DNA from: a bacterium
GTDB lineage: Bacteria > Krumholzibacteriota > Krumholzibacteriia > G020349025
Assembly (NCBI GenBank): GCA_031362565.1
Contig: JANLSU010000103.1
Coordinates: 32,001 to 96,000 of the forward strand
DNA: 64,000 nt
Direction of reading: 5' to 3'
Shown here: positions 39,230-48,941 of the stretch, one piece after another
Layout: each line of letters opens with the position of its first letter
Numbering within the stretch: position 1 is the first letter of the stretch
Program-made: the position numbers and the translations under genes
The notes under the pieces: model-generated
Seen by the model: the letters and a program-made list of their open reading frames with translations, nothing else
What the model was told of the DNA's origin: nothing
Database searches by the model: none

Positions 39230-40942
39230 ATGACGCAGGGATTTGCGCGCGCCACCTTCACGGGTGTGCTGCCGCGCGACGTAGTGTTTCCGTATCCCGA
39301 GATGCGCCCCGAAGACGCCGAGGTCGTCGGGATGCTGGTCGATTCGATTCGCAAGTACGCTTCCGAACACATCGACGATGCGCGCATCGACTCCGAAAGC
39401 CGCATGCCGCGCGAGATTCTGACCACCCTCGCCGAACTCGGCATCATGGGCATGATCGTTCCCGAGGCCTACGGCGGTTCGGGAATGAGTGTGACGGCCT
39501 ACTGCCGCGTGTTGGAAGAGATCGCCTACTACTCGGGCGCGGTCGCCGTAACGGTTGGCGCGCACCAGTCCATCGGCATGAAGGCGATTTTGCTCTATGG
39601 CACCGATGTGCAGAAGCGCGCCGTGTTGCCCAAGCTTGCTACGGGCGAGGAATTCGCCGCCTTCGCGCTCACCGAGCCGGGTGCCGGAAGCGATGCCGGC
39701 AGTGTGCAGACGACGGCGACGCTGACTCCGGAAGGCGACTTCTGGGTCCTGAACGGCACGAAGCAGTGGATCACCAACGCCGGGTTCGCCGACGTGTTCA
39801 CGGTCTTTGCGCGCACCGACAGCACCGGGACGCAATCGACCGGCAAAGCCATCTCGTGTTTCATCGTCCGCCGCGACACGCCGGGCGTCACGGTGGGGCC
39901 GCCGGAGAAAAAAGTTGGGCTGCGCGGTTCGGAGACCAACGAAGTGCATTTCGAGTCGGTGCGGGTACCGGCCGGCAATCTCCTGGGTGAAGTCGGCAGC
40001 GGCTTCAAGATCGCCATGTCGGTGCTCAACGAAGGGCGGCTCGGGCTCGCGTCGGGCTGCGTCGGCGCGTCGCGCCGGCTCCTGCAGCAAACGGTGGCGT
40101 ACGCCAACCAGCGCCGGCAATTCGGCCAATCCATCGGCAGTTTCGAGATCATCAAGGAAAAGCTCGCCCATATGGCGGCGCGCACCTATGTCATGGAAAG
40201 CTCCGCCTATCTGACCGCCGGCATCGCCGACCGCGGCGTCAAGGACATCAGCATCGAAGCCGCCATCTGCAAGGTGATGGGCAGCGAGACTCTGTGGTAC
40301 GTGGTCAACGAAGCCATTCAGATTCACGGTGGCAACGGCTTCATGGAAGAGTTTCCGTTCGGCCGGGTCATGCGGGATGCGCGGATCAATCTCATCTTCG
40401 AGGGCACGAACGAAATCCTGCGGGTCTTCATCGCCGGCATGGGCGTCAAGGGTCCGGGCGAGGAACTGCGCCTCGTGGCGCACGCGTTGCGCCACCCGGC
40501 GCGTGAGATGGGCGTTCTGTCGCACTACTTCGGGCGGCGCATCGAGCGGCGGTTCTTGCGTGATCGCCTCCGCGACCTGCGCCCCGAACTCGACGAGTGT
40601 GCACGCGGCATCGAGCGCGTCGTGCAGCAACTGCCGCGGCGCGTCGAAACGTTACTGCGGGTCCATGGCCGCGACTTCGCGACCCGCCAATACCTCATGA
40701 AGCGGATCGCCGATGTGGCGATCGACACCTACGGCATGGTTGCTGCGACCTCGCGCACGAATTCCTTGCTCGAGCGCGGTGAACCGGCGACCCAGGAACT
40801 GGCGATGACCCGCTTCTGGTGCCGCAAGGCGATCCGGCGGATCCGGCGCAACATGCGGGGACTGGTCGTCAATAGCGACGCTCTCACGACCGATGTCGCC
40901 GATGGGATCCTGTCGGCGCCACTCTGGTTCGATCGCACCTGA
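39230..40942 (+). CDS. Acyl-CoA dehydrogenase, ACAD9/VLCAD-like with C-terminal extension
   Basis: AHQSIG, FALTEPGAGSDA, NGTKQWITN, RRQFG, QIHGGNGF, IFEGTNEI. Confidence 0.93.
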   Translation: MTQGFARATFTGVLPRDVVFPYPEMRPEDAEVVGMLVDSIRKYASEHIDDARIDSESRMPREILTTLAELGIMGMIVPEAYGGSGMSVTAYCRVLEEIAYYSGAVAVTVGAHQSIGMKAILLYGTDVQKRAVLPKLATGEEFAAFALTEPGAGSDAGSVQTTATLTPEGDFWVLNGTKQWITNAGFADVFTVFARTDSTGTQSTGKAISCFIVRRDTPGVTVGPPEKKVGLRGSETNEVHFESVRVPAGNLLGEVGSGFKIAMSVLNEGRLGLASGCVGASRRLLQQTVAYANQRRQFGQSIGSFEIIKEKLAHMAARTYVMESSAYLTAGIADRGVKDISIEAAICKVMGSETLWYVVNEAIQIHGGNGFMEEFPFGRVMRDARINLIFEGTNEILRVFIAGMGVKGPGEELRLVAHALRHPAREMGVLSHYFGRRIERRFLRDRLRDLRPELDECARGIERVVQQLPRRVETLLRVHGRDFATRQYLMKRIADVAIDTYGMVAATSRTNSLLERGEPATQELAMTRFWCRKAIRRIRRNMRGLVVNSDALTTDVADGILSAPLWFDRT

Positions 40943-40950
40943 CCAAACCC

Positions 40951-41580
40951 TCACGCTTGTGGCGGGTGCGCCGGGCGTGTACCGCGTGGCCGCGGCCAGC
41001 GCGGCGACACGGTGCGATAGATCGCTTGGATCACGGCTGCCGACGCGCCGCCGGCCAGGAACCCCACCAGCACATCCGCCGGGTAGTGCACCCCGACATA
41101 GCAGCGCGAGTAGCCGACGGCGAACGCCGTCAGGCCGAGTGGAATGCGCCAACGCCGGTAGAAGAACATGAAGTGCACGGCCGCCGCCGCCGAGTTCGCC
41201 GCATGTGAACTGGGCATCGACCACGAGCCGGAGCACCCGGCGAGCAAATGCACGTGCTCCAGCACGTGGCATGGGCGCACGCGGTGAAACGCATCTTTCA
41301 GGAAATGGCTCGAGAGTTGATCGGAGAGGGCGATCAACGGAATGACGAGCAACGCCGCCCAGCGTTCGCGCCGCTTCCCGAACACCAGCAGCAGCACGAA
41401 GACGATGACGAACAGCACTTTGAAGTTACCGTCGCTGGAGAGAAACGGCATCAGGCGATCGAAGAGGCCGTTCTGCCAGGCGCCGTTGACGCGCTCGAAG
41501 AGGGCGCGGTCGGCAGACGCGAGAGTTTCGAGCACTGGGCGTCCGAATCGCAAAAGAACACGGCGGGTCCCCGGCGCCAC
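40951..41580 (-). CDS. PAP2 family membrane phosphatase (start uncertain)
   Basis: K...R.RP, SMPSSHA, SRCYVGVHYPAD. Confidence 0.9.
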   Translation of the reverse strand: MAPGTRRVLLRFGRPVLETLASADRALFERVNGAWQNGLFDRLMPFLSSDGNFKVLFVIVFVLLLVFGKRRERWAALLVIPLIALSDQLSSHFLKDAFHRVRPCHVLEHVHLLAGCSGSWSMPSSHAANSAAAAVHFMFFYRRWRIPLGLTAFAVGYSRCYVGVHYPADVLVGFLAGGASAAVIQAIYRTVSPRWPRPRGTRPAHPPQA

Positions 41581-41648
41581 CGCACCTTAAACACTGGTGT
41601 CAGCGGTGCGCAAGCCGCAGGCAGGCCGCTACGCCGCCCCGCGGGGGC

Positions 41649-41676
41649 TTGCCGCCGCCCGGATGCATGCTAGAAT
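41649..41676 (+). promoter_or_regulatory. Sigma70-like promoter of the queE operon
   Basis: TTGCCG-16 nt-TAGAAT with extended -10 TGn. Confidence 0.5.
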
Positions 41677-41794
41677 GACCGCACGGGACGCGATCCCCGC
41701 ACAATTCTCGCCGAGGCCACGGCGTGGCCGGAACAGAATCGGCGCGACAAACGGGGGCCCACGAGGCCCTTTCCCTTATCGTCCTGGAGACGGT

Positions 41795-42442
41795 ATGGAC
41801 GGACGCTTGCGCGTCAACGAGATCTTCTATTCCGTGCAGGGCGAATCGACGCATGCGGGGCGTCCGTGTGTCTTCGTACGGTTGACCGGTTGTCCGTTGC
41901 GCTGCACCTACTGCGACACGGCCTACGCGTTCCATGACGGGCGCTGGATGACGCTCGACGATGTGCTGGATGCGGCCGGCGCGCACCCGTGCCGGCTGGT
42001 CGAAGTCACCGGTGGCGAACCGCTCGCGCAACCGGCGACGCTCGCACTGCTGGCAGCGCTCGTGGAGCGCCAGTACGAAGTCCTGCTCGAAACGAGTGGC
42101 GCGTTGCCGATTGCGGCCGTGCCGGCGGGCGTGCGGCGCATCGTCGACTTCAAGACGCCGGACTCGGGTGAATCGCACCGCAATGATTGGACGAATGTCA
42201 CGGCGTTGCGAACTGGGGACGAAGTGAAATTCGTCATCGGCTCGCGCCGCGACTACGAATGGGCCCGCGAGATCATTCGCGAGCACGCACTCGACGCGCG
42301 CGTGCCGGTTCTCCTGTCGCCGGTTTGGGAGAGTGGCATCGAGCGCGATCTGGCCGCCTGGATGCTCGCCGATGGCCTGCCGGCGCGGTATCAGATCCAA
42401 CTTCACAAGTGGATTTGGCCCGGCGTCTTGCGCGGGGTGTGA
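41795..42442 (+). CDS. queE: 7-carboxy-7-deazaguanine synthase (radical SAM)
   Basis: EIFYSVQGES..AGRPCVFVRLTGCPLRCTYCDT (CX3CX2C), TGGEPL, ETSG, QLHKWIW; GGAG RBS. Confidence 0.93.
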   Translation: MDGRLRVNEIFYSVQGESTHAGRPCVFVRLTGCPLRCTYCDTAYAFHDGRWMTLDDVLDAAGAHPCRLVEVTGGEPLAQPATLALLAALVERQYEVLLETSGALPIAAVPAGVRRIVDFKTPDSGESHRNDWTNVTALRTGDEVKFVIGSRRDYEWAREIIREHALDARVPVLLSPVWESGIERDLAAWMLADGLPARYQIQLHKWIWPGVLRGV

Positions 42443-42445
42443 CAC

Positions 42446-43801
42446 GTGTCCGAGTTTCAGCCATTGCTTGCGGATCTTCGCACCCCGCCCCCGGGGCCGC
42501 GCTCGCGCGCCTTGGCCGGGCGGCTCGAACGAGTCGAATGCCCGGACACGACGTTTCTTTCGGATCGCTTCCCGGTGTTCTGGGAACGTGCGTCCGGGGC
42601 GAACGTTTGGGATGTGGACGGCAATCGGTACATTGATTTGACCGCTGCCTTTGGCGTGGCGCTTCTTGGACACGGCCATCCGGATGTCATTGACGCGCTG
42701 CGCACGCAGGCGACGCGTCTCGTGCATGGCATGGGCGACGTTCATCCCACTGAACTCAAAGTCGAGGTCGCGGAGCGGTTGGCGGCACTCGCACCCGGTG
42801 GGCACGGTGTGACGTTGTTCGGCAACGCCGGTTTCGAGGCGGTCGAAGCGGCGCTCAAGACGGCGGCGCTCGCGACGGGGCGTCCCGGTGTGCTGGCGTT
42901 CGAAGGTGCGTACCATGGGCTCGGGATGGGTGCGCTCGCCACGACCTGGCGCGAAGAGTTTCGCGCCCCGTTTCGCGCTCAGTTGAATCTACACGTCACG
43001 CACGTGCCGTATCCCGCCGGCCGCGGGGTCGGTAGCGCCGCCGACGCTGGGCGTGCGCTGGATGCGGTCGATAGGTTGCTCGGCTCATCGGATGGCGCCA
43101 ACATCGGTGCGGTGCTCGTCGAACCCGTGCAGGGGCGCGGCGGCATTCGGATTCCACATGCGAGTTTTCTCACCGGCCTGCGTGAGGTCTGTACGCGGCG
43201 CGGCCGGCTACTCATCGTCGATGAAATTCTCACCGGTCTCGGGCGCACCGGCCGCTGGTTCGCGTGTGAATACTCGAATGTCGTGCCGGATCTGCTGTGC
43301 GTCGGCAAGGCGCTGGCCGGCGGGCTGCCGTTGTCGGCGTGCATCGGCACTCCGGCTGTCATGGCGAGCTGGGGCCGATCGACGGGCGAAGCGCGCCACA
43401 CCTCGACGTTTCTTGGCAATCCCATGGCGTGCGCTGCTGCCATTGCGACTCTCGATGCGTTGGCGCGCCTGGATGCGCCGCGGGTGGCGATCGAGCGCGG
43501 GGCGCGGCTTGGACGCCTCTTGGCCGGGCTCGGGGCGCATCCCGGCGTCGCGGACGTGCGTGGGTTGGGATTCTTGTTTGGCGTGGAACTGGTGTCAGCG
43601 GAGGGTTCTCCCGACGGGGCGGGCTGTTTCGACGTTGTCTGCGCCGCGCTGCAACAGGGAGTCCTGGTGCTCGGCGACGGCAGTGACGGCAACGTGCTCG
43701 CCTGCATGCCGCCGCTCTGTCTCGCCGATGAACCGATGGATGCGGCCGTCGCGGCTCTTGACGCGGCGCTCGAGATGCGTGCCGCGGGGAGCGCTCCATG
43801 A
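42446..43801 (+). CDS. Class III PLP-dependent aminotransferase
   Basis: DVDGNRYID, GFEAVEAALK, GAYHG, EPVQGRGG, DEILTGLGRTG, GKALAGG (PLP Lys), TFLGNP. Confidence 0.93.
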   Translation: MSEFQPLLADLRTPPPGPRSRALAGRLERVECPDTTFLSDRFPVFWERASGANVWDVDGNRYIDLTAAFGVALLGHGHPDVIDALRTQATRLVHGMGDVHPTELKVEVAERLAALAPGGHGVTLFGNAGFEAVEAALKTAALATGRPGVLAFEGAYHGLGMGALATTWREEFRAPFRAQLNLHVTHVPYPAGRGVGSAADAGRALDAVDRLLGSSDGANIGAVLVEPVQGRGGIRIPHASFLTGLREVCTRRGRLLIVDEILTGLGRTGRWFACEYSNVVPDLLCVGKALAGGLPLSACIGTPAVMASWGRSTGEARHTSTFLGNPMACAAAIATLDALARLDAPRVAIERGARLGRLLAGLGAHPGVADVRGLGFLFGVELVSAEGSPDGAGCFDVVCAALQQGVLVLGDGSDGNVLACMPPLCLADEPMDAAVAALDAALEMRAAGSAP

Positions 43802-44994
43802 ATGCTTCGCAAGCAGCACGCGATCCCGAAGCCGAGCGGCTCGATGCGCGCCTCCGCGACTGGATGACGACGGCACCGGCGGGGTTCACGCAGGCGGGCC
43901 GAAACCTTGGGGCACGCTACGGGCTCGATGCGGCGGGAGCCACGCGACTCGATCGTGAGTTCGATGCACTGGCCCTCGATCTGTTCGAATATCAAACCAA
44001 TCGCATCGAAGTGTATCGAACCTTTGCCGCGGCCGGCGACCGGCGCGCGACTCCGCAGCGTGCCGTCGATGTGCCGGCACTGCCGCTCGTGGCCTTCAAA
44101 CAGGCACGGGTTGCGGCTTTCCCGCCGGCGCGCGAGTGCGCGGTATTCCACACGAGCGGCACCACCGACGGCCGGCCGGGAAAGCTCCATCTCGACGACT
44201 TGTCGCTCTATGAACTGTCGCTTGCCCGCGGCTTTCGCCATCACGTGCTGCCCGACTTAGATCGCATCCGTATGTTGCTCGTAGTCGGTACGGCCCGCGA
44301 GATGCCACACTCGTCACTCGCCTACATGCTCGACCACGTGCGCCAGTTGTGGGGTACGGCCGAGAGTGGACATTTTGTTCAGGATGGCAAAGTGCAGTAC
44401 GCGGCGTTCGTGGCCGCAGTGCGCTTGGCGTGCCGTGATCGCGAGCCTGTGTGTTTGATGGGCACAGCGCTCGCGTGGGTCCAAATCCTGGACGCGTGTG
44501 CAGCCGAAGGCTTTCGCGTCGTGCTTCCCGAGGGTAGCCGGGTCTTCGAAACGGGCGGCTATAAGGGACGTACTCGAGAGTTGTCCCGCGCCGACCTCGC
44601 GGCGGGCTTCGAACCGCATTTCGGCATTCCGGCAACGCATGTCGTGAGTGAATACGGTATGACCGAGATGGCGTCGCAGTACTACACGACATCGTTGCGT
44701 GCCGCACTTCTCGACACGCCGCTCGACCAGGCAGTGTGGTCGCACCCCGCGTGGCTGCGCCCGCATTGGCTCGATCCCGAGCGCGGCACTCTGTTGGAGG
44801 TTGCGGAGGCGAGCGGCATCGGGCTGCTGGCCCATCACGATCTCGCGAATCGTGGCAGCGTTGCGCATCTGTTGACCGCCGATCTGGGCAGCGCGCACGA
44901 CGCGGGCTTTGACCTCGCCGGGCGATGTCCGCAAGCCGACCCGCGCGGGTGTGGACTCGTGTACGAAACGTTGCCGCTGGTGCGGGCGCCGTGA
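43798..44994 (+). CDS. LuxE-like acyl-protein synthetase (ANL-type carboxylate activation)
   Basis: FHTSGTT, FETGGYKGR, SEYGMTE..SQ, DLAN..S...T.DLG, C-terminal GR...RGC acyl-accepting Cys; ATGA overlap. Confidence 0.88.
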   Translation: MNASQAARDPEAERLDARLRDWMTTAPAGFTQAGRNLGARYGLDAAGATRLDREFDALALDLFEYQTNRIEVYRTFAAAGDRRATPQRAVDVPALPLVAFKQARVAAFPPARECAVFHTSGTTDGRPGKLHLDDLSLYELSLARGFRHHVLPDLDRIRMLLVVGTAREMPHSSLAYMLDHVRQLWGTAESGHFVQDGKVQYAAFVAAVRLACRDREPVCLMGTALAWVQILDACAAEGFRVVLPEGSRVFETGGYKGRTRELSRADLAAGFEPHFGIPATHVVSEYGMTEMASQYYTTSLRAALLDTPLDQAVWSHPAWLRPHWLDPERGTLLEVAEASGIGLLAHHDLANRGSVAHLLTADLGSAHDAGFDLAGRCPQADPRGCGLVYETLPLVRAP

Positions 44995-46337
44995 CTCGCC
45001 GGCGACTGGCGCATCTGCCAGGCCTCGCGGGCGAACACGATTGGCGCCCGCTCGGTGACCTCCAGTTCGATACGCCAGTGCTTGCCGCGGCCGATGTTCG
45101 CACCGTTTGGACCGCGATCGCGACCGCAAGCCGTGCATGGCGCGCGCGCCCGCTCGCCGAGCGCCTTGATCGATTGGCGGCGGTCGCGGCGTGGTTGCGG
45201 ACCGAAGGCCCTGGTCCAGAAGCAGACGCACTCGTTCGTACAACAGGATTGTCATCGGCCGGGCTTGCCGCAGCATGGGACGCGACGTTCGCACCGTCCA
45301 CACTCGCTGCGCTCGCGGCAGCAATCGACGCTGAAGGTTTGTGGGACCGGCTCGAGGCCCCCGGCGCCGACGTTGGACCCGTCGTGCATGTCGTGGCCGG
45401 TAACGTCATGCCCGCAACATGGACGATGCTCGTTCGCGGCTGGCTCGTCGGGGCGCCGCAGTGGCTGCGTCCCGCGAGCCGCGAACCGCTCTTCCCGATC
45501 ATTGTTGCGGCGCGATTGCAAGCGCTCGCGCCGGAATTGGCGGCGACATTCGCGGTGACCTGGTGGCTGCACGGCGACGATACTGTCGAACGGCACGTGC
45601 TCGAAGCGGCTCATGTCGTGACAGTGCAGGGCGACGATCCGGCGATTGCTGCGGTGCGGGCGCGTGTGCAAGCGGTCGCGGAACAAGCGCGCTGCGTTGC
45701 CTATGGACCACGCTGGAGCGCGGCGCTCGTCGCCGAGGCAGCGCAAACGCCGGACAATGCCGCCCGGTTGGTGCAGGACATGGCGCTTTTCGACCAACAA
45801 GGTTGCCTCTCGCCGTCGATCATCCTCGCCGAAGACGGTCCGCGTCTCGAAGCATGGTGCGGTGAACTTGCGGCCGCGCTCCAGGCAGCGGAGACGCGTT
45901 TGCCACGCGGCAACGTGGATGCGACGCGAAGCGCTGGACTTCGTCTGTGGCGGGAGTCGGCGCGCCTCGGAATTGCGCTCAGGACGGTACGGCAGTTGTG
46001 GGAAAGTTCAGGTTCGTCAGCGTGGGCCGTGGCGCTCACGGCGCCGGGCGCGTCGCTCGCTTCGCCGCTCGACCGCCATGTCGTCGTGATGCCAGTGGGC
46101 AACACCGCTGGCGCCGCGCAAGAGTCGATCGATGTCGTGCGTGCGGCCCTCGGCCCGCGTTTGGTGCGGTTGCAAGGGCTTGGCGTCGACACCACGGGTT
46201 GGTCGGCAGAGACGCGTGACGCCTGGGTCGCAGCCCTCGATGCAGCGCATGTCGCGCCGCTCGGAACCCTGCAATGGGCGCCACCCGGCTGGCGCCAGGA
46301 TCATCACCCGCCGCTCGGTTCACTGCTCAAGTCGTAA
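44991..46337 (+). CDS. LuxC-like acyl-thioester reductase (ALDH fold)
   Basis: HVVAGNV, RPASREP, GDD.AI..VR, YGPRWS, DMALFDQQGCLSP (catalytic Cys); GTGA overlap. Confidence 0.85.
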   Translation: MTRRRLAHLPGLAGEHDWRPLGDLQFDTPVLAAADVRTVWTAIATASRAWRARPLAERLDRLAAVAAWLRTEGPGPEADALVRTTGLSSAGLAAAWDATFAPSTLAALAAAIDAEGLWDRLEAPGADVGPVVHVVAGNVMPATWTMLVRGWLVGAPQWLRPASREPLFPIIVAARLQALAPELAATFAVTWWLHGDDTVERHVLEAAHVVTVQGDDPAIAAVRARVQAVAEQARCVAYGPRWSAALVAEAAQTPDNAARLVQDMALFDQQGCLSPSIILAEDGPRLEAWCGELAAALQAAETRLPRGNVDATRSAGLRLWRESARLGIALRTVRQLWESSGSSAWAVALTAPGASLASPLDRHVVVMPVGNTAGAAQESIDVVRAALGPRLVRLQGLGVDTTGWSAETRDAWVAALDAAHVAPLGTLQWAPPGWRQDHHPPLGSLLKS

Positions 46338-46346
46338 GAACTGGGC

Positions 46347-46685
46347 CTACCGCACCGACATGCGCAGCGCGTCGTCTTCCGAGGCTGCGAGGTCGAGCTT
46401 GGCGGCGACGTTGGTGCATTCGAACAGACGCAGCGCGGAGTCGCGGGCGCCGGTCAGACTGAAACGGCGGGCGCCGCTTCGGGCCCGCTGCTGGATCCGG
46501 AAGAGATAGGCGAGGGCGTCCGCGTCGACGCGTTCGACGTCCTGCAGGTTGAGCACGACATCGCGCGCGGTGGGAGCGAGTTCCTTGTCGATTTCGCCCA
46601 ACAATTCGCGCGCCGCGGCGCGGGTCAGGTCGCCCCGGACGCGGACGACGAGCGCCTCATCCACGGCTTGAATTCGAATCTGCAT
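46347..46685 (-). CDS. STAS-domain protein (anti-sigma-factor antagonist-like)
   Basis: VVRVRGDL, VVLNLQDVERVDADAL, about 112 aa; GAGGAGG RBS. Confidence 0.85.
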   Translation of the reverse strand: MQIRIQAVDEALVVRVRGDLTRAAARELLGEIDKELAPTARDVVLNLQDVERVDADALAYLFRIQQRARSGARRFSLTGARDSALRLFECTNVAAKLDLAASEDDALRMSVR

Positions 46686-46850
46686 GTCGCCTCCTCGCTC
46701 GGTTCCTTGGAGTATCGTCCGGTCTGCGGGCCAACGAGGGGGTATCCAGGAACGACAACTACTGTAGCCCACCACGCTGGCAGCCTGCAACAAGCGGCGA
46801 CCGCCGCCTCCCCGTCCGCCCAAGGGCTTGCCCGGGCCCCCCGCTCGCAG

Positions 46851-46865
46851 GCAGCCCGCGTGCCA
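46851..46865 (-). promoter_or_regulatory. Sigma54-like promoter upstream of the STAS gene
   Basis: Minus strand TGGCACGCGGGCTGC (GG-N10-GC). Confidence 0.4.
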
Positions 46866-46881
46866 GGCGCCAGGCCGCGCC

Positions 46882-47376
46882 CTAGGCTTCGAGCTGGGTT
46901 TCGCAGCGCCCGCTTTGACCCGGGGATTCCTCGACCGTGGCGGCGAAGGCCACGACGCCGCCCGAGCGGAGCGCGTCGTGCAATCGCTCGACGAGGGTGG
47001 TGCAAAAATACTGGGCGAGACACTCGCAGCTGACATTGGGCACCGGGAGGATGGTGCAGTCTTCGGCGGGGAGTACGTAGCGCTTGCCGCGGCACCGCAC
47101 TTCGATCTCGCCGTCCCGCGAAGTGATTTGGAGATCGGCGGCCGCACCGGGCAAGAGCAGAGTCTCATCGAGTTCGGCGCACAGGCGCCGCGCTTCGACC
47201 TTCACGGTGCCGAAGTCGACGAGCAGGCCATGCTGCAGTGTCTTAGCGCGCAGCGTGAGTTGCACGCGGTAATTGTGGCCATGCAGGCGTTCCATGGCCG
47301 ACTCGAACAATGTGAAGTGGGCGCTGGAGAACTTCATGTCCTCCTTGCCCAGCGAGATCTCGTGGATTTGCATCAC
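46882..47376 (-). CDS. 6-pyruvoyltetrahydropterin synthase/QueD family (COG0720), PTPS-III-type signature
   Basis: KFSSAHF...MERLHGHNY, GLLVDFG, SCECLA, VEESPG; E-x2-HGH with no Cys. Confidence 0.88.
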   Translation of the reverse strand: MMQIHEISLGKEDMKFSSAHFTLFESAMERLHGHNYRVQLTLRAKTLQHGLLVDFGTVKVEARRLCAELDETLLLPGAAADLQITSRDGEIEVRCRGKRYVLPAEDCTILPVPNVSCECLAQYFCTTLVERLHDALRSGGVVAFAATVEESPGQSGRCETQLEA

Positions 47377-48701
47377 CGGAACGTGAGGCCAAGGCCGATG
47401 TAGCTGGCCTTCGTCACGCCCGAGCGGCCGACGCCGTTTGCATCGACGACGCGAAAGTGGCTGAGGTTGCTGACGCGGACGAGCGCAGTTCCCATCACAT
47501 GATCACTGAGCGGCAGGCGCAGGCGCCCGGCGTAGCTCGGCCCGACCTCGGTCTCGCCGACGACGCGCAGCCCGGTGAAACCGATCATCCCGGCCAGATT
47601 CACGAACCCGAAATCGATGTCGAGTCCGCCCGAAATGGAACCGCCGTTCACGACCGGCGCCCGGCTCGAACTGAATGCCACGAAGGCGCTCTCGTTCACA
47701 AGCAAGAATTTGAAGAAGCGCTGGTTGAACGCGAAATAGACGCCGCCTTCCGTGACCGGGTCACCGGCCGGCGTGCGGGCGCCGAGGAACGCGATCACGC
47801 CCACCTCGGGCTGCAGGTCGAGCTTCGAGGGCGCGTATTGCAGGTTGTAGCCCTGGTAGTTGGGCCCGAGCATGTTGACGCCCTGTCGCAACGCCGCTGC
47901 CGGTGGCGCCGGATCGAGTGGCGCCAAGCGATCTACCGGCACCGGATCGAGCGAGACGTACTGGCTCGGGTCGGAGCTCTTGCGCGGCGGGTATTGGTCG
48001 CGCGTCGAATCCGGCTCGCCGCGGAAGAGTCGCATGTCGTTCACGGCCGGGAGCGAGTCCGGGCCGGTGGCAATCCAAACGTCGCCACCGCGCGCTGCGA
48101 GTTGCACGACCTCTTCGGCGAGCCGCTTCCGATAGGCGAGCACCACGGCGGTGGTCATATCGAGCGCCATGGCGGAATCGGCATTCTCGATCGGCGCGAT
48201 GGTGGCCGTGAAACCTTGCTTGCGGATGTTCGGAAACAGCGCGACGCTTTCGTCCGGTACCTGCGGATCGAGCTTGCCGTAGCGCGGCAGCCCGCCGTCG
48301 TAGTCCTTGCCGCGGTTGAGGTAGATCACCATCGGCCAGTACGTCGCCGCGAACCCCGCCGGCGACGAGCCATCGGCGATCGAATAGATGCGCGATGCGA
48401 TGTCACGCAGGTCGTGCCCGTTCATGAACACTTGCACCATGTTGGCGGTGTTCGGCACCGGCTCGAACGGCACGCTGGCCATCAGTTCCTTGTAGAGACG
48501 GACACGCTCGTTGATGTGATCGACGCGCGCCTTCTCGTCCAGGTACTCGATCCGCTTGCGCTCGGCTGCCTCGCGCTGCTGCTGGATTTCGGCGGGATTC
48601 GGCTGTTGAGCCGCAAGGCGCGAAACGGATCCGGCCGCCAGCAAGAGCACGCCGGCGAGGCCCAGGGTTCGGATCAAAATGGATCGGCTGCGCCCTCGCA
48701 T
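47373..48701 (-). CDS. Exported hypothetical protein with probable C-terminal outer-membrane beta-barrel
   Basis: Signal peptide, coiled N-terminus, amphipathic strands ending YIGLGLTFR. Confidence 0.65.
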   Translation of the reverse strand: MRGRSRSILIRTLGLAGVLLLAAGSVSRLAAQQPNPAEIQQQREAAERKRIEYLDEKARVDHINERVRLYKELMASVPFEPVPNTANMVQVFMNGHDLRDIASRIYSIADGSSPAGFAATYWPMVIYLNRGKDYDGGLPRYGKLDPQVPDESVALFPNIRKQGFTATIAPIENADSAMALDMTTAVVLAYRKRLAEEVVQLAARGGDVWIATGPDSLPAVNDMRLFRGEPDSTRDQYPPRKSSDPSQYVSLDPVPVDRLAPLDPAPPAAALRQGVNMLGPNYQGYNLQYAPSKLDLQPEVGVIAFLGARTPAGDPVTEGGVYFAFNQRFFKFLLVNESAFVAFSSSRAPVVNGGSISGGLDIDFGFVNLAGMIGFTGLRVVGETEVGPSYAGRLRLPLSDHVMGTALVRVSNLSHFRVVDANGVGRSGVTKASYIGLGLTFR

Positions 48702-48941
48702 CTCGGGTCGAACCTCCTGCGTTGGACCGTTCCTCGGGGGAACGTTTCGGGACGGAACGAGCCGGGGCTCGAACCCCGCGCCCGCCGCGGGCCGGGCCCT
48801 GCTCCGGTGGGACCAAATAAGCGCCACATCCTAGCACAGGCCCACGGCGGGCGGGCGCTGGGCCAAGGCCGCCCGGCACGGCCTGCCGGACGGCCCGGAA
48901 ACAAAGCCGGTGGATGCCGTGAGCGCAAGTCCCGGCGGCGA

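Follow-up and report, generated by a model that had tools for sequence, protein, structure and literature searches.

A stretch of 64,000 nucleotides from a bacterium of the phylum Krumholzibacteriota (assembly GCA_031362565.1, contig JANLSU010000103.1, positions 32,001 to 96,000), analysed at its full length and referred to here as the window, contains four co-oriented open reading frames (ORFs) at positions 41795-46337, which encode QueE, a class-III aminotransferase, and two proteins related to LuxE and LuxC. Since queE is joined here to genes for acid-to-amine enzymes, in a genome without QueC and QueF, the operon is probably a new way to preQ1, the base that enters tRNA on the way to queuosine. 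The genes of the operon and the features around it are the following.

41795-42442, + strand: queE, 7-carboxy-7-deazaguanine (CDG) synthase, assigned from the ORF and family models; sole QueE of the genome
42446-43801, + strand: class-III (omega-type) aminotransferase, assigned from the ORF, family models and solved relatives; proposed to convert 7-formyl-7-deazaguanine to preQ1
43798-44994, + strand: LuxE-like ATP-dependent acid activator with a C-terminal Cys (RGC), assigned from a family profile; proposed to activate CDG
44991-46337, + strand: LuxC-like NAD(P)H thioester reductase with a Cys in DQQGCLSP, assigned from PF05893 and alignment; proposed to catalyse the aldehyde-forming step
46882-47376, - strand: PTPS/QueD-family paralogue, below the QueD cut-off in family scans; pathway membership uncertain
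41649-41676, + strand: sigma-70-like promoter site, TTGCCG-16-TAGAAT, TG-extended, a consensus match only
41679-41701, + strand: 23-nucleotide motif CCGCACGGGACGCGATCCCCGCA at the start of the queE leader, a pattern present in the window and in the loci L005, L103 and L105

Organization of the operon and families of its proteins

A first-pass annotation of this DNA had described four tightly coupled genes behind a single sigma-70-like promoter, and the coupling is confirmed by the ORF coordinates. The queE gene begins at an ATG with GGAG just 5' of it, the aminotransferase gene begins at a GTG 3 nucleotides past the queE stop codon, and the LuxE-like gene overlaps the end of the aminotransferase gene through an ATGA. 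The most likely start of the LuxC-like gene is the GTG at 44991, within a GTGA overlap, and its frame is also open from an ATG at 44925. A promoter-like site was likewise found ahead of queE, in a region that holds two sigma-70-like sites compared with 0.5 +/- 0.7 in shuffled sequences. An acyl-CoA dehydrogenase gene lies upstream of the operon, with a divergent PAP2 gene in between. A motif of 22-24 nucleotides, CCGCAGGGTTCGTCTCCCCYGC, with an inverted-repeat core, is found 5' of queE in four family members, the window having a variant of it (41679-41701 in the window, 5721 in L005, 4528 in L103 and 4915 in L105); the window copy begins right after the -10 hexamer, and the motif may serve as an operator or form a hairpin in the leader.

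The first protein scores 292.6 bits against the QueE model TIGR04349 (cut-off 300), has a Radical_SAM match, and carries CPLRCTYC, a CX3CX2C motif; all three of its sequence matches in the PDB are CDG synthases. It is treated here as QueE, with the CDG-forming step predicted from this family assignment. The aminotransferase matches Aminotran_3 (PF00202) with 330.3 bits over profile positions 7-403 of 403, while every NCBIfam equivalog score remains under its cut-off. Its closest solved matches, both over the full length, are the gamma-aminobutyric acid (GABA) aminotransferase 4FFC (E 2e-73) and the putrescine aminotransferase 4UOX (E 2e-63), which act on terminal amine/aldehyde pairs. The sequence GKALAGG in its translation holds the putative lysine for pyridoxal phosphate, as read from the motif and not from a column alignment.

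The LuxC-like protein matches PF05893 with 132.9 bits (cut-off 21), and its DQQGCLS aligns with DQQACFS, containing the catalytic Cys, of chain A in the LuxC-LuxE structure 7XC6. The LuxE-like protein gave no Pfam match as a single window sequence; a profile of 16 sequences of its family matches chain E of 7XC6 with E 5.7e-29 over positions 27-364 of 370, and PF04443 is present in the precomputed annotation of most of its homologues. Its C385, in the RGC motif, is invariant in 16/16 sequences and aligns with the GCSL of LuxE. In the accessible text of the cryo-electron microscopy paper, acyl transfer is described between LuxE C364, which enters the LuxC site, and LuxC Cys296, and the myristoyl group is kept by LuxC in a hydrophobic cleft more than 40 A long (PMC9157457). 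The two operon proteins are relatives and not lux enzymes, as they score far under the NCBIfam equivalog cut-offs, with 27.6 bits for NF052244 (long-chain-fatty-acid--protein ligase, LuxE; cut-off 550) and 49 bits for NF052251 (long-chain-fatty-acyl-CoA reductase, LuxC; cut-off 750). The catalytic motifs named in the first-pass annotation (CPLRCTYC, GKALAGG, TSGTT, YGMTE, RGC near the C-terminus, and DQQGCLSP) are all present in the translations. Its statement that queC, queF, luxA/luxB luciferase and luxD are missing also agrees with the family scans, in which none was matched among the window ORFs covered, namely 124 of the 137 ORFs of at least 190 amino acids outside 38-49 kb (13 short ones omitted) and 9 ORFs around the operon; for luciferase and LuxD the search was confined to the window and was not genome-wide.

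Queuosine genes in this genome and among carriers of the LuxE-like gene

QueC uses ATP and ammonia to form preQ0 from CDG, and preQ0 is then reduced by QueF with NADPH. These two steps agree with the accessible part of PMC5372724. The assembly, which is 100% complete by marker genes with 1.85% contamination and consists of 133 contigs, encodes FolE (TIGR00063, 256.6 bits), Tgt and QueA side by side, QueG, and exactly one QueE, that of the operon. Three genes of the PTPS/QueD family are present, none above the QueD cut-off (best 75.2 vs 89.25). The genome-wide profile search gave no match for QueC, and its sole weak match for QueF is FolE; with QueC and QueF proteins of the same phylum as tblastn queries, the best E on this genome was 0.25. 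No QueT transporter and no QueH were found in the genome. This is the profile that had been predicted, with tgt, queA, queG, folE and a single queE present and queC and queF absent. The PTPS/QueD-family paralogue next to the operon, which adjoins it in G160 too, has the lowest QueD-model score of the three; ERL stands ahead of its HGH motif, and no cysteine is close by. A Cys is expected ahead of this motif in QueD.

Among carriers of the LuxE-like gene, one genome is entered twice, as G001 and as G052, whose Tgt coordinates are identical, so that the distinct carriers number 60, and QueF is present in 1 of these 60. In the 50 carriers that were searched, Tgt was found in 48 and a QueE-like gene in 43, and a Pfam profile search detected QueF in none. 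The QueF model did yield 13 matches in 11 carriers, of 27-31 bits over model positions 1 to about 60 of 81, and all of them are FolE. The anti-correlation with queF that had been foreseen is thus borne out, and the opposite pattern, in which most carriers would also have queC and queF, did not appear.

The same relation is seen within phyla. In a sample of 201 genomes from the window's own phylum, the LuxE-like gene is present in the window's genome and in five of the six other members of its family, and in 0/194 genomes elsewhere; QueF is found in 1/6 carriers vs 123/195 others, and QueC in 1/6 vs 171/195. Hypergeometric probabilities for these counts are 0.03 (QueF) and 2e-4 (QueC), values that ignore relatedness and so overstate the case. 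In Verrucomicrobiota, where 6 of 151 genomes carry the LuxE-like gene, QueF occurs in 0/6 carriers vs 124/145 others and QueC above its cut-off in 0/6 vs 120/145, absence from the match lists being scored as negative for G382 (QueF and QueC) and G361 (QueC); the probabilities, again overstated by ignoring relatedness, are 2e-5 (QueF) and 5e-5 (QueC).

With E up to 0.001, the protein collection holds 410 homologues of the LuxE-like protein; where a name is given it is 'hypothetical protein', with two exceptions, an 'Acyl-protein synthetase, LuxE' and a 'long-chain fatty acid--CoA ligase'. Relatives are encoded in at least 579 stretches (one genome per species). The best 80 of these loci, searched with the proteins of the window, span Gemmatimonadota, Myxococcota, Eremiobacterota/Vulcanimicrobiota, Verrucomicrobiota, Methylomirabilota, Actinomycetota, Acidobacteriota, Armatimonadota, Sumerlaeota, Chlamydiae and others. 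An aminotransferase gene lies within 3 kb on the same strand in 36/80 loci, a LuxC gene within 3 kb in 46/80, and both in 26/80; these counts are lower bounds, because the single-sequence search missed the LuxC of L071, a locus with the gene order LuxE-LuxC-aminotransferase. LuxE and LuxC are found in one open frame in G060 and L059.

The expected linkage to queuosine genes stood in part, since it recurs in several phyla, but adjacency to queE is not universal. The queE gene adjoins in 5/80 loci (L005 and four Verrucomicrobiia), as well as in the window and three family members, and queG lies directly upstream of the aminotransferase-LuxE-LuxC genes in L011, L019, L030 and L049; the three genes are therefore linked to queE in two unrelated clades and to queG in two others. 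Besides queE and queG, clustering of the neighbouring ORFs gave no other family common across phyla. The operon is kept in four further members of the window's family and in L005, and the longer string of acyl-CoA dehydrogenase, PAP2, queE, aminotransferase, LuxE, LuxC and STAS genes is kept in G160 and partly in G060, G151 and G237. Two other arrangements were observed. A 484-amino-acid ORF without a Pfam or NCBIfam family (47373-48827, - strand) adjoins the operon in the window and also in L005, L103, L104 and L105, and in a Sumerlaeota locus (L067, 9022-10245) the gene after the LuxE-like one encodes an aminotransferase of class I/II (PF00155) and not of class III.

The proposed route to preQ1 and its alternatives

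In the proposed route, QueE would make CDG, and the LuxE-like enzyme would adenylate the CDG carboxylate and load it as a thioester on its own C-terminal cysteine. The acyl group would then move to the cysteine of the LuxC-like protein, from which NAD(P)H would release 7-formyl-7-deazaguanine, and the class-III aminotransferase would turn this aldehyde into the aminomethyl compound preQ1. Tgt would put preQ1 into tRNA, and QueA and QueG would complete queuosine. The aldehyde is itself a known compound, released by QueF variants according to the accessible portion of PMC13740343. Substrate, intermediate and product are predicted from the genes present and their order, from the conservation of catalytic residues and from the phyletic pattern, and on these grounds it is likely that the operon encodes this QueC- and QueF-independent route. 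The replacement of QueC plus QueF by acid-to-amine enzymes, as the first-pass annotation had put forward, is supported by the pathway hole of the genome and by the phyletic pattern. It also seems rather likely, with slightly less assurance, that the trio of LuxE-like, LuxC-like and aminotransferase proteins is a widespread preQ1 synthase system that works via an aldehyde, and that the nitrile chemistry of QueC and QueF is not obligatory for queuosine.

Several observations weigh against these conclusions. At the level of the loci, neither an aminotransferase nor a LuxC gene was detected in 24 of the 80, and adjacency to queE is a minority arrangement. QueC-like matches of at least 70 bits occur in 11 of the 50 carriers, nine of which (all except G031 and G037) were scanned with the QueC equivalog model; its cut-off of 150.3 is passed by two of the 50, G016 (199 bits) and G002 (154 bits), and the other seven are under it (G019, G012 and G004 with 100-111, G045 with 86.6, G028 and G013 with 72-78, and G050 with 57.7). 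One member of the window's family, G237 (64% complete, 710 contigs), has the operon and, on another contig, a queC-queF-queD-like-queE cluster, which could be a set of 7-deazaguanine genes of mobile or phage type, or else an error of binning. QueF is also missing in genomes that lack the LuxE-like gene: in the families f3 and f7 of the own phylum (for example G053, G057, G070 and G075), QueC is found in 37/42 and 8/8 genomes and QueF in 0/42 and 0/8, with no LuxE-like gene, so that QueF loss also occurs for other reasons. The LuxC family gave only two weak matches in the 27 genomes searched from the QueF-less families f3, f7 and f2, and was absent or weak in the 23 genomes checked from f3 and f7; the absence of QueF in these three families is not explained by the LuxE/LuxC/aminotransferase system.

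Also on this side of the balance, five loci examined in an actinobacterial LuxE/LuxC clade, placed by a neighbour-joining tree without support values, include three in which a short-chain dehydrogenase (SDR) gene adjoins. Three genomes of this clade, which are included among the 50 carriers, have no QueE-like match, and Tgt is absent in two of them (Geodermatophilus chilensis and Modestobacter sp. DSM 44400). With SDR linkage, no QueE-like match and Tgt mostly absent, the actinobacterial clade probably does something else. Examples of its LuxE-LuxC-like pairs are those of Arthrobacter sp. DWC3 (L039), Geodermatophilus chilensis (L048) and Modestobacter sp. DSM 44400 (L050).

The surroundings of some of the QueC and QueC-like genes were also observed. 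In G016, the QueC gene is accompanied by a transposase gene and by a second queE of a different kind (L090, 5600-8698), and in G045 the QueC-like gene lies beside a cyclase gene of the CBASS (cyclic oligonucleotide-based antiphage signalling system) type (L101, 1981-4593), which suggests defence- or mobile-element-linked deazaguanine genes apart from tRNA queuosine. In the Verrucomicrobiia carriers G013 (L089, 5554-6396) and G028 (L102, 3922-4848), a QueC-like PP-loop gene lies by a futalosine-type menaquinone decarboxylase gene. The G237 cluster (L092, G237:C1, 3542-9187) comprises queC, queF, a queD-like gene and a queE of the Cx14CxxC type near an IstB-like ATPase gene.

The remaining points against the route bear on an alternative in which preQ1 or a related base is imported via a YhhQ-type transporter and the operon makes another 7-deazapurine product from CDG, for instance a formyl or aminomethyl compound destined for a metabolite or a different modification, and not the preQ1 used by Tgt. 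The genome does have a YhhQ/Vut_1 gene (153 bits), so that precursor salvage is possible, and PMC5372724 describes the YhhQ of E. coli as transporting preQ0. The operon is, moreover, not tied to preQ1 by a riboswitch, as an Rfam scan of 40900-47600 (E up to 5) gave no preQ1 riboswitch and only a chance CRISPR-repeat match of 17 bits, and a genome-wide search with the preQ1-I class (RF00522) was negative for the 50 carriers and for the window's own genome, 51 in all. In addition, a few carriers retain QueC. The transporter does not, however, exclude de novo synthesis, since E. coli matches Vut_1/YhhQ as well as QueC and QueF, and salvaged preQ0 would require QueF, which is absent here. Import would also leave unexplained the absence of QueF in 59/60 carriers while Tgt is kept, and the presence of queG within the same gene string. 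This alternative is considered unlikely.

The order of the reactions could also differ, with the trio acting on 6-carboxy-tetrahydropterin, the product of QueD, and QueE contracting an aminomethyl pterin directly to preQ1. The PTPS/QueD-family gene that adjoins the operon here and in G160 would fit such an order, which is nevertheless quite improbable: QueE is an ordinary family member, with other carriers scoring above 300 bits on TIGR04349, it has no sign of a changed substrate, and the adjacent paralogue is the one that least resembles QueD by score. It is more doubtful still that the genes form a module from fatty acid via fatty aldehyde to fatty amine that stands beside queE by chance, even though the LuxC-LuxE fatty acid reductase provides the only solved relatives of the LuxE- and LuxC-like proteins, an acyl-CoA dehydrogenase is encoded upstream beyond the PAP2 gene, and LuxC-related acyl-thioester reductases are described as making alkylamines, together with a transaminase, in the synthesis of tambjamine BE-18591 (bioRxiv 10.1101/2025.08.11.669332). 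Both proteins score at a small fraction of the LuxE and LuxC equivalog cut-offs, the scanned window ORFs hold no luciferase or LuxD family, and chance cannot account for the linkage to queE or queG in four clades or for the near-exclusion of QueF.

The route from CDG via 7-formyl-7-deazaguanine to preQ1, if true, has several consequences. The trio would explain how most bacteria of the carrier lineages keep queE, tgt and queA without queF, and the scoring of genomes for de novo queuosine synthesis versus salvage would change. A large lux-like gene family that is annotated as 'hypothetical' in non-luminous bacteria would also gain a function, and a carboxylate-reducing enzyme pair for a polar heterocycle would become available, which may be useful in biocatalysis.

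Comparison with known systems

Queuosine synthesis is regarded as a solved pathway, and QueF is, to our knowledge, the only known class of enzymes for the reduction of a nitrile to an amine. Full-text searches of a literature collection that holds few of the subscription journals gave no paper that links a LuxE/LuxC-like protein or a carboxylate reductase to queuosine or preQ1. The acid-to-amine logic is already known for fatty acyl chains, as stated in the available text of bioRxiv 10.1101/2025.08.11.669332. What is new is the pathway, which joins known enzyme families to a known product.

The proposed route and the QueC/QueF pathway share their start, CDG, their end, preQ1, and the downstream enzymes Tgt, QueA and QueG. 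They differ in that the operon enzymes are from unrelated families and would proceed through a thioester and an aldehyde, with no amide or nitrile, and in that an amino donor would provide the nitrogen in place of ammonia. The operon proteins are homologous to those of the LuxC-LuxE fatty acid reductase (7XC6; PF05893, PF04443), both Cys residues align, and the two genes are likewise adjacent, being sometimes fused in relatives of the operon. On the other hand, the operon proteins are very distant from that reductase and are coupled to an aminotransferase and to queuosine genes, and their proposed substrate is a polar deazapurine acid, whereas that of LuxC is myristoyl.

Similarities were also found to systems in which an amine is formed from an aldehyde. 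TabE/TabA, of tambjamine BE-18591, and TamH combine, as far as the accessible text describes them, a thioester reductase of the aldehyde-dehydrogenase-like class with a subsequent omega-transaminase, and they act on fatty acyl chains bound to acyl carrier protein (ACP) or coenzyme A (CoA) in natural-product clusters; the operon, in contrast, encodes an activator of the LuxE type, has no carrier protein and is linked to tRNA modification. The GABA and putrescine aminotransferases (4FFC, 4UOX), as the best solved matches, resemble the operon aminotransferase in that they interconvert a terminal amine and an aldehyde, the same kind of conversion that is proposed here for 7-formyl-7-deazaguanine and preQ1, while the operon enzyme is set apart from them by falling short of all the NCBIfam equivalog cut-offs.

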